Part shown: positions 61,030-62,512 of the stretch, one piece after another
How positions within the stretch are numbered: the first letter of the stretch is position 1
How the letters are laid out: each line of letters opens with the position of its first letter
IMG/VR virus record: IMGVR_UViG_3300025389_000010
Coordinates: 96,001 to 160,000 of that record
From: a virus
Lineage: Duplodnaviria > Caudoviricetes
Length of the DNA: 64,000 nt
Strand: one strand, 5' to 3'
Notes under the pieces: generated by a model
The model's database searches: none
What the model was told of the DNA's origin: nothing
Seen by the model: the letters and a program-made list of their open reading frames with translations, nothing else
Program-made: the position numbers and the translations under genes

Positions 61030-61189
61030 TGTTAATTCTTTTTATTTCTAATAACATTTCCTTTGCTCTAGTCTTTGAGATTCTTATCTCATTGTTCCCA
61101 ACTCTGTCCGCAATAGGAATAAGGGTTTTGAGAATACCCTCTAAGTCTGAAACTATATTATCGTATGTCATGGTTGATATATTAAACAC
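60962..61189 (-). CDS. hypothetical protein
   Basis: 75 aa ORF; the true start may be MTYDN. Confidence 0.45.
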   Translation of the reverse strand: MFNISTMTYDNIVSDLEGILKTLIPIADRVGNNEIRISKTRAKEMLLEIKRINNEKSKAKSKHIRREPAWLDRPE

Positions 61190-61199
61190 TTTTGTTTTT

Positions 61200-61430
61200 T
61201 ATGCAAGAAAATTGTGCGAGCTTTATTTTTATCTCTTTGGCCTTTCCTCGCTCATGCCCTTCAGATGGGTGCGACCACAACATATTTTTGGATGGCGGGG
61301 CGCAACTCCCACATATGTTGTTCCTGTACAGCCTTGCAAGGACTGCCCCGGAATTTCCAGAAGCATTGTACAGATCGGGCATTCACCGATACCAACTTGT
61401 CTGCATTTTGACAAGCAGATACATCCTTAA
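61200..61430 (-). ncRNA. candidate structured ncRNA of unknown family
   Basis: About 51% GC over 61241-61420 by hand count; nested 5-9 bp stems; own sigma70-type promoter; boundaries approximate. Confidence 0.6.
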
Positions 61431-61433
61431 TAT

Positions 61434-61462
61434 AATTTAACACCGATACGTTCTTGTGTCAA
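61434..61462 (-). promoter_or_regulatory. sigma70-type promoter for the candidate ncRNA
   Basis: Minus strand TTGACA-N17-TAAATT with an extended TG. Confidence 0.65.
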
Positions 61463-61470
61463 ATAAAAAA

Positions 61471-61546
61471 TGGCACGTTAGGAGGGACTCGAACCCACAA
61501 CCAACAGTTTTGGAGACTGCGACTCTACCAATTGAGCTACTAACGT
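61471..61546 (-). tRNA. trnW: tRNA-Trp(CCA)
   Basis: GCAGT-CTCCAAA-ACTGT; canonical D/T loops; encoded CCA. Confidence 0.93.
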
Positions 61547-61547
61547 G

Positions 61548-61622
61548 TGGCTGAAGTGGTAGGACTCGAACCTACAACCAATCCCTTAACAGGGGATCGC
61601 TCGACCATTGAGCTACACTTCA
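61548..61622 (-). tRNA. trnN: tRNA-Asn(GUU)
   Basis: ATCCC-CTGTTAA-GGGAT; encoded CCA; 1 nt from tRNA-Trp. Confidence 0.93.
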
Positions 61623-61628
61623 ATAAAT

Positions 61629-61704
61629 TGGTCGTGATGGAGAGACTCGAACTCTCGATTCCTTGCTCCCAAAGCAAGTGCCATAGCCGCTAGGCGACAT
61701 CACG
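61629..61704 (-). tRNA. trnP: tRNA-Pro(UGG)
   Basis: CTTGC-TTTGGGA-GCAAG; C1-G72; encoded CCA; TATAAATA immediately upstream. Confidence 0.93.
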
Positions 61705-61738: not shown

Positions 61739-62512
61739 TCAAGCATATTTTTGCATTTGTACAACATTTTCGGTATTACCACGAAACATTACAGCAGCAA
61801 AACCACAATTACCATGATGTGTTAAAAGTATTTTACATTTAGATACAATCCTGACAACACTTTCAAAATTAATAATCCAATTTGTTTTATCAACTTTTGG
61901 TTTAACATTACCGCCAACATTTTCAAAAAGCATTTCTTCAAAAATAAAAGTATTAGATAAATTCTTAACAAAAAAATCCTTTGCATCTAAAGAATCTGTT
62001 TGTACCAATATTCTATAATTTTCACCAAAATCTTTTGCCACTTTTACCCAAACATCTAAAGGTGTTGGTTTAACTTCTGTAAATTTATCATTACCTCTAT
62101 GGAAAACACAAAGAGTATTTTCATAATCTATATTATATTTGTTTTCTAAAAAAGAAATTCTTTCTAATACTAAATCAGAAGGATTAAAAAAAGCATCGTT
62201 TATTTTTTTTAAATTATCAAAGTCTATATTATCATAGTCAATATAGTTAACATCAAAATTTTTATAATCAAAACCAATATTTATTTTTTTTATATTTTCA
62301 TGATTTGTCCTATAAATTAAATCAAAAACATCATCATTTGGATTTTCTTTATATGGTTTTAAGGTATATTCAAATGATATTTTTTCAGGTATTATTGAAT
62401 TTGAAATTAAACTATAAAGACCAAGTTTAGTTTGATTTATACAAGAATAAAATCCTGCGTTATCTTGATTACCATAAAGAGTATTATTTGCTGAATTATA
62501 ATCAAAACACAT
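61739..62512 (-). CDS. NodZ/O-fucosyltransferase-like glycosyltransferase
   Basis: AGFYS, CVFHRGNDK, ILVQTD, SKCKILL...GN.G. Confidence 0.65.
   Translation of the reverse strand: MCFDYNSANNTLYGNQDNAGFYSCINQTKLGLYSLISNSIIPEKISFEYTLKPYKENPNDDVFDLIYRTNHENIKKINIGFDYKNFDVNYIDYDNIDFDNLKKINDAFFNPSDLVLERISFLENKYNIDYENTLCVFHRGNDKFTEVKPTPLDVWVKVAKDFGENYRILVQTDSLDAKDFFVKNLSNTFIFEEMLFENVGGNVKPKVDKTNWIINFESVVRIVSKCKILLTHHGNCGFAAVMFRGNTENVVQMQKYA

Follow-up and report, generated by a model that had tools for sequence, protein, structure and literature searches.

The GC-rich island that lies directly 3' of a tRNA cluster in this phage is probably a genuine, lineage-specific gene for a non-coding RNA read from the minus strand, a reading to which we give a probability of roughly 0.6. 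The window considered here is a stretch of 64,000 nucleotides, bases 96001-160000 of a record of 225,756 bp with a GC content of 32%. The record carries a gene for a T4-type gp23 major capsid protein (Pfam PF07068, 300 bits) and 17 tRNA genes in all (ARAGORN), and it is that of a T4-like jumbo phage. What is new in the present work is a pair of diverged copies of the island that give comparative support to the non-coding reading. One of these (L119) is an ENA contig reached via homologues of a neighbouring 257-aa protein, which is 89% identical, and the other (L128) is a JGI contig found by an exact-word metagenome scan.

The genes of the locus all lie on the minus strand, in the order 257-aa ORF, tRNA-Pro/Asn/Trp, island and a run of small ORFs, with the tRNA trio immediately upstream of the GC-rich cassette in the direction of transcription. 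The features are as follows, in window positions unless a contig is named.

62512..61739, minus strand: ORF of 257 aa.
61471..61704, minus strand: genes for tRNA-Pro(TGG), tRNA-Asn(GTT) and tRNA-Trp(CCA) (ARAGORN; Rfam tRNA 60.8-69.1 bits).
61212..61464, minus strand: GC-rich cassette as a whole, comprising promoter, core RNA and 3' extension; an insertion with respect to island-less relatives, conserved in L119.
61290..61427, minus strand: predicted core RNA of ~138 nt, from predicted start to end of closing stem, within the conserved 142-nt stretch 61286-61427, and matched by covariance model R1.
61212..61285, minus strand: 3' extension, present in the window and L119, absent from L128, without supported structure.
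ATG at 61171, minus strand: 69-aa gene, the first of the small-ORF run after the island.
L119:1746-2225 and L128:1934-2413, minus strand: ORF of 159 aa between the island and the 69-aa gene, absent from the window.

With respect to composition, the GC island described in an earlier sequence-only reading of this DNA is real, as GC reaches 0.45-0.55 in 100-nt windows over 61200-61400 compared with 0.32 across the record; the island is similar in GC to the adjoining tRNAs. In the island-less contig L139, the tRNA 3' end is followed by a T-run and then directly by a segment homologous to the window from 61211 downward (TTTTC-TTGC...). On this alignment, the island is a discrete insertion of ~250 bp (61464..61212) within a narrow phage lineage. 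Within it, ~40 variable AU-rich bases and the promoter separate the tRNA from the predicted fold, and a search of the phage's own genome found no paralogue. The size of ~230 nt first given for the element proved too large, as the conserved unit spans only ~140 nt. Beyond that unit, the 3' extension gives only weak folds that do not agree (window z = +1.0), and it carries a 1-nt indel at 61277, the base being deleted in L119.

Divergence among the neighbouring tRNA genes is uneven. Specifically, tRNA-Pro and tRNA-Asn (window 61548-61704 versus L119:1116-1274) show ~72% identity over ~70% of their length in a pairwise local alignment, and tRNA-Trp is 98.7% identical between the window and L119. 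A tRNA-Tyr(GTA) gene follows tRNA-Trp in L119, L140, L142 and L139, and none is present anywhere in the window genome. Comparison of L119:1397-1481 with window 61466-61500 places the junction within a shared GGTTCGAGTCC T-arm sequence, which suggests that tRNA-Tyr was lost by recombination between tRNA 3' ends.

The island occurs at the same place in independent assemblies, which come from ENA, Logan and JGI. Distinct versions of the core number three (window, L119 and L128), with L141 and L143 corresponding to the L119 and L128 contigs; the cores of L140 and L142 score the same as that of L119 under model R1. This model, which was built from the three near-identical sequences, gives 183-186 bits in all core copies. 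Close homologues of the neighbouring genes are accompanied by cores that score as L119 or L128 do, and when the contexts of homologues of the 257-aa, 69-aa and 159-aa genes were checked, the distant ones were without the tRNA/island arrangement. An IMG/VR scan with the 121-aa neighbour protein returned nothing.

Beyond these contigs, model R1 found no match to the core in 17 related or neighbouring phage records, 14-16 of which were also searched by DNA with the same result; the 17 include two complete genomes of ~211 kb with major-capsid identities of 77% and 75%. Five contigs (L129, L139, L144, L145 and L146) have the same tRNAs or neighbour genes and no island. The core is thus missing from all the other relatives examined, which argues that it is dispensable and young. 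In the 'distant' mode of blastn against 50,697 phage records only the tRNAs matched, and scans of IMG/VR for four exact words from the island produced chance matches only. The metagenome word scan yielded, apart from L128, two chance matches of 23 nt, and a scan of a genome collection produced a single chance match in a Petrimonas coding region. More diverged relatives may lie beyond the reach of exact-word searches and of a model made from three sequences.

The central observation is that the core has changed less than the protein genes around it. Over its 142 nt (61427..61286), the core shares 97.9% identity with L119 and 95.1% with L128, compared with ~90% and ~76%, respectively, for the flanking protein genes (binomial p for the excess conservation, 2.5e-4 and 9e-10). 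The window and L119 share an identical stretch of 115 nt, whereas their neighbouring genes differ at ~10% of sites, and throughout 61323-61378 only position 61323 varies among the three copies. Between L119 and L128 the core is 95.8% identical and the 159-aa gene 84.4%, with differences of 17/13/45 by codon position. In L128 this diverged gene begins 12 nt past the core, and the boundaries of conservation are therefore sharp. Taken together, these comparisons demonstrate constraint on the core at the nucleotide level, as read from the alignments, with the caveat that its apparent extent could be inflated because this variable spot adjoins a homing-endonuclease-like gene, where lateral transfer is possible.

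In terms of structure, the minimum-energy folds of the three cores, each computed separately, have the same architecture (-45.7, -45.2 and -48.0 kcal/mol), and the predicted fold comprises a closing stem and four arms.

61422..61426 with 61290-61294, minus strand: closing stem GGAUG/CAUCC (consensus and three separate minimum-energy folds).
61390..61421, minus strand: arm H1, 11 bp with a U·U mismatch and loop AAAAYGCA (consensus and separate folds).
61375..61389, minus strand: arm H2, stem UCGG/CCGA of 4-5 bp with 7-nt loop UGAAUGY (consensus fold).
61323..61374, minus strand: branched arm P2, with an 8-bp stem and two hairpins, 61344-61365 (loop AAU) and 61331-61343 (loop UGCA) (consensus and separate folds).
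61295..61312, minus strand: arm H4, 5-bp stem GUGGG/CCCRC with an 8-nt loop (consensus fold).

A single strand of 10 nt connects P2 and H4. Four of the helices proposed by eye from the window recur in both minimum-energy and consensus folds, namely 61324-30/61367-73, 61374-78/61386-90, 61396-401/61410-15 and 61290-94/61422-26. The last of these had been regarded as long-range and pseudoknot-like; its pairing holds, but as a plain nested closing stem, and it is pseudoknotted only relative to a 9-bp helix (61277-85/61313-21) that is not conserved. That 9-bp helix is without comparative support, its 3' strand falling in the 3' extension that L128 lacks. A further proposed helix, 61216-20/61247-51, lies inside the same non-conserved extension, for which no stable or consistent fold was obtained. 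The pairing 61400-04/61415-19, put forward as a competitor of 61396-401/61410-15, would be broken by a G-to-A change at 61416 in L119, which keeps the latter helix.

The substitutions among the copies fall into this fold in a distinctive manner. Only three stem positions vary (61416, 61323 and 61296), all of them by G·U to A-U changes, and the remaining differences lie in loops, the junction and the tail. In H1, G61416A in L119 converts G·U to A-U and U61405C in L128 is in the H1 loop; in H2, C61379U in L128 is likewise in the loop; in P2, a G-to-A change at 61323 in L128 converts U·G to U-A; and in H4, G61296A does the same in both L119 and L128, with C61300A in the loop. In addition, an A-to-U change at 61289 in the tail of L128 lengthens the closing stem by one pair. 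Stem changes of this type are neutral only on the minus strand, and the substitutions fit a minus-strand fold. The minus-strand fold holds five or six G·U pairs, at which the opposite strand would have A·C mismatches, and in each of the three copies it is favoured over the plus strand by 2-6 kcal/mol.

When scored on a fold for which only the window sequence was used, seven of eight substitution events leave pairing intact, and the eighth costs no more than a marginal pairing of 2 bp within the loop of H4. The consensus fold has no broken pair, for which the simulated chance is 0.013 (eight events) or 0.022 (seven events). All 46 pairs are standard in every copy; three show a one-sided change and none a double compensatory change, in a set of three distinct, near-identical sequences that is too small for a covariation test. 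Absence of covariation combined with protein-like substitution had been named beforehand as grounds for abandoning the RNA reading; what was found is no double compensatory change, yet substitutions that are clearly not protein-like. Folding energy does not clearly exceed chance, with z-scores of -1.7 (281 nt), -1.0 to -1.3 (221 nt) and -1.9 (142-nt core), and similar values for the plus strand. Overall, one fold fits all copies, and we regard this modelled fold as plausible.

The proposal that the element has its own promoter was upheld by a promoter scan, which located TTGACA-N17-TAAATT at 61462..61434 of the minus strand, with a TG ahead of the TAAATT. Its boxes, together with a second candidate on the other strand, are as follows.

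61457..61462, minus strand: -35 box TTGACA, invariant in the window, L119 and L128.
61434..61442, minus strand: extended -10 box TGnTAAATT (TAAATT = 61439..61434), invariant across the three copies apart from position -13, which is free.
61408..61436, plus strand: perfect consensus TTGACA-N17-TATAAT (12/12 matches), back to back with the minus-strand promoter (promoter scan).

In L128 the spacer differs at 8 of 17 bases (47%) and keeps its 17-nt length. Counting seven bases on from the -10 hexamer leads to 61427, which immediately precedes the closing stem. Matches to TTGACA-N16-18-TAnnnT number 33 on the minus strand and 15 on the plus strand of the genome, versus a total expectation of 17.5; among them, at the record ends, is an array of TTGACACC... 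promoters that are nearly identical, and the cassette promoter is of the same TTGACA(C)-N17-TAnnnT type as these repeated promoters.

Several side observations concern other promoters. Ten near-identical TTGACACCTCCTCCTAAAGCATATAGAAT promoters occupy 101-2520 and 225236-225684 of the phage's own genome on the minus strand. This array looks like an early-promoter cluster, and its presence at both ends suggests that the record ends adjoin or form a terminal repeat region. The plus-strand candidate at the island has a -10 box that overlaps that of the minus-strand promoter and reads TACAAT in L119, and its conservation is uninformative because its -35 box sits inside arm H1. It would fire antisense into the tRNA genes, and the back-to-back arrangement may be coincidental or may represent a symmetric bidirectional promoter. 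Ahead of the 69-aa gene, a promoter-like TTGCAT-N16-TAATAT element (window 61172-61210, minus strand) ends 7 nt before the ATG, and a counterpart in L139, TTGCTT-N16-GATAAT, aligns with it and ends 6 nt before the ATG; from their placement, such elements may give rise to leaderless or nearly leaderless early mRNAs.

The failure to match the island by eye to known phage RNAs was also borne out. Rfam 15 (4227 models) was blank at gathering thresholds and up to E = 10, where only noise appeared (mir-567 at 16 bits, SNORD44 at 15 bits and sroH at 13 bits), and the L119 and L128 copies likewise matched nothing in Rfam. The Rfam ribozyme models (hammerhead, twister, HDV-like and others) gave no match at E up to 10. 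Two resemblances noticed by eye were rejected. A CsrA sponge was considered, and the GGA motifs are mostly in stems, one of them being lost in L128; a likeness of GGAAAUUCCGGGGC and GAGGAAAGGCC to RNase P CR-I was accompanied by no match to an RNase P model. The suggestion of a new class of non-coding RNA or ribozyme is supported in its non-coding half by the conservation of the core, the absence of a kept reading frame, the promoter boxes and the minus-strand fold; for its ribozyme half we found no evidence. The term 'new class' is itself too strong for an element known from one narrow phage lineage.

The 159-aa gene that follows the core in L119 and L128 matched nothing in Pfam or PHROG. A D...D...E-x-K pattern was seen in it by eye only. 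In many phage contigs, L129 among them, a homologue is located within or next to a tRNA cluster; in L144 the homologue is 65 nt after tRNA-Trp, and in L145 and L146 it lies between tRNA-Asn and tRNA-Trp. By analogy, its pattern of presence and absence resembles that of a free-standing homing endonuclease such as T4 segB.

Building from these results, we propose that the island is a self-contained minus-strand transcription unit. Its promoter would be of the sigma-70 type with an extended -10, matching in type the phage's TTGACAC-N17-TAnnAT promoters, which are presumably read by the host RNA polymerase early in infection. Transcription would begin at ~61427, and the first ~138 nt would fold into a compact GC-rich junction in which the GGAUG/CAUCC stem closes H1, H2, P2 and H4; transcripts that read through from the tRNA genes would contain the core RNA as well. 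A scan of the locus found no intrinsic terminator after the core, and a discrete small RNA would thus need a processing step, with the 3' end probably generated by nuclease processing instead. We infer that the RNA would be free and stable and would reach any target in trans, for example as a protein-binding or decoy RNA, which would make it a positional analogue of T4 RNAC/RNAD and not a regulator of the gene behind it. Taken by itself, action in trans is a tentative proposal that falls somewhat short of even odds. It is favoured over action in cis because the downstream gene and its spacing differ between copies (the 69-aa gene at ~118 nt in the window, the 159-aa gene at ~75 nt in L119 and at 12 nt in L128), because the 69-aa gene of the window keeps a promoter-like element of its own that is shared with the island-less L139, and because the linker between core and gene is dispensable.

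Among other explanations, a small protein-coding gene from a GC-richer source, either a minus-strand ORF of 60-66 aa or a plus-strand ORF, can be considered effectively refuted. All six frames are open, with ORFs of 60-143 aa, and in one ENA contig a gene caller fused the island and the 159-aa gene into a 238-aa ORF; however, the 1-nt deletion of L119 shifts the frame and L128 has a premature stop in the otherwise longest frame, and no reading frame is kept. Every substitution is non-synonymous in each minus-strand frame, and the 115-nt identity between the window and L119 likewise stands against a coding gene. The indel, the stop and the all-non-synonymous substitutions are not those of a protein-coding gene, and the sequence comparison thus demonstrates the absence of coding. 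A Pfam search of the island ORFs found nothing at E up to 10, and an exhaustive phmmer search of 1.84 billion proteins with the 60-aa ORF returned two repeat proteins, one of 1161 aa (12 stretches, E = 1e-31) and one of 408 aa. We rejected this homology as spurious, since a short motif (D-K/R-L-V-S ... F-W-x-x-R-G-x-P) is summed over repeats and the frame is not conserved. Also very improbable is a decayed or greatly expanded tRNA-like gene, whose arms would mimic acceptor, D, anticodon, variable and T arms. The helix order is indeed cloverleaf-like (closing stem, arm, arm with a 7-nt loop, long branched arm, 5-bp arm), and a class II tRNA-Tyr adjoins the island in L119. Moreover, model R1 with filters off aligns weakly (13.4 bits) to the tRNA-Pro of L144, equating the closing stem with the acceptor stem and H2 with the T arm, and ARAGORN at 60% thresholds draws two poor, malformed tRNA-like folds. 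Nonetheless, ARAGORN was blank at default, 70% and 80% thresholds and with introns allowed, and the Rfam tRNA model RF00005 did not match anywhere within the island at E up to 10. Consensus T-loop and D-loop sequences are lacking, as is U33; CCA, which the phage's genuine tRNAs encode, is likewise missing, and the island shows no sequence similarity to any tRNA of the genome.

Two alternative explanations remain. In one, which we consider unlikely, the core would be a structured 5' leader acting in cis, with the downstream genes driven by the promoter and their translation or stability controlled by the fold, which would serve as a riboswitch, thermosensor or start-codon trap. There is no terminator between the core and the next gene, and in L128 the ORF starts 12 nt past the closing stem, where the unpaired junction AACAUAU could pair with the AUAUG that contains the start codon of the 159-aa gene. 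This pairing amounts to 9 bp in the window, 8 bp in L119 and 5 bp in L128, which retains only a CAUAU/AUAUG remnant of the 9-bp helix, next gene's start codon included; there is also precedent in T4, in which homing-endonuclease and late genes hide their start codons in hairpins (PMC3014915). However, neither the downstream gene nor its distance is conserved across the three copies, and in the window the 69-aa gene has its own TTGCAT-N16-TAATAT element by the ATG, in alignment with L139. The segment from core to gene is unstructured or absent, which is not the pairing of conserved aptamer and expression platform that a riboswitch would present, and no riboswitch family in Rfam matches the island. 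In the other explanation, at the DNA level, the cassette would be recently spread DNA without RNA function, either a promoter module that moves or sequence flanking, or targeted by, the homing-endonuclease-like gene, with identity arising from gene conversion between co-infecting phages instead of selection on an RNA. This we judge to have a small probability. The cassette is an insertion relative to L139, L129, L144 and L145, it occupies a hot spot in a tRNA cluster, next to a 159-aa gene that is present in some contigs and absent from others (T4 segB is similarly placed), and both its narrow distribution and its weak fold z-scores would be expected. Conservation is nonetheless fine-grained and not in a block, as both promoter boxes of L128 are intact around the 47% diverged spacer, and the endonuclease-like gene 12 nt 3' is just 84% identical with a coding-type pattern of change, which weakens this explanation because recent transfer would have homogenised the neighbours too. 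The substitutions, moreover, respect one RNA fold on one strand.

Returning to the reading of the island as a non-coding RNA gene, a bolder version would hold it to be the first example of a new phage RNA family, a compact five-helix RNA with its own early promoter that travels as a movable tRNA-cluster module and serves as a decoy or inhibitor, a ligand-binding RNA or a catalyst. We consider this version improbable. Were it a decoy or inhibitor, it might be aimed at a host RNA-binding or RNA-cutting defence or at a translation factor. On present evidence the RNA is a lineage-specific orphan, and its wider importance is uncertain. The stable RNAs of the T4 tRNA cluster have gone fifty years without a known function, and the island RNA would be a second, independent case. 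The occurrence of an unrelated RNA with a promoter of its own at this position, in a T4-like jumbo phage distant from T4, points to tRNA clusters as places where accessory phage RNAs repeatedly settle. If the host were cultured, the presence and absence of the island among close relatives would permit loss-and-gain comparisons.

Several known RNAs invite comparison with the island. GOLLD and ROOL are, like the island RNA, ornate and sometimes found beside phage tRNAs. They are several-fold larger, at hundreds of nucleotides, and have Rfam models, unlike the island core with its ~140 nt and no Rfam match. YrlA (RF02553) shares with the island RNA a modular build and a stem that closes 5' and 3' ends, and it occurs near tRNA genes in some phages. 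Matches of the YrlA model (22-23 bits versus a cut-off of 69) fall on true tRNAs and not on the island, however; the island RNA is without the tRNA-like module of YrlA, and no Ro/TROVE gene was found in the phage. Theta ribozymes, like the island RNA, are structured and lie beside viral tRNAs. They abut the tRNA 3' end and process it, whereas the island fold is set ~40 nt and a promoter away. Theta ribozymes are described as minimal HDV-like ribozymes adjacent to viral tRNAs (PMC10879173), and our comparison was made by this description and the Rfam ribozyme models.

The closest parallel is with the T4 stable RNAs RNAC (species 1, 139 nt) and RNAD (species 2, 119 nt), the function of which is still unknown (PMC3014915, PMC9697503). 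In sequence and timing, the two cases differ. A search of T4 69000-74000 (rnaC/rnaD) with model R1 gave no match at E up to 10. T4 RNAC has a tRNA-like T arm (GGUUCGAAUCC) and a z-score of -4.6, compared with no T arm and a z-score of -1.9 for the island RNA; the T4 rnaC fold shows CCGGGUUCGAAUCCCGG, and the island is without the T-loop consensus. RNAC and RNAD are classed as late RNAs (PMC9697503), whereas the island RNA, with a TTGACA-type promoter of its own, would be early. In size and setting, on the other hand, they are alike. The T4 RNAs are similar in length to the core of ~140 nt, both they and the island RNA lie at the 3' or distal end of a tRNA cluster in the orientation of the tRNAs with small ORFs after them, and a homing-endonuclease gene in the T4 tRNA cluster has its counterpart in the endonuclease-like gene beside the island in L119 and L128. 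By this analogy, the likeness of the island RNA to RNAC and RNAD is one of genomic logic and not of family.
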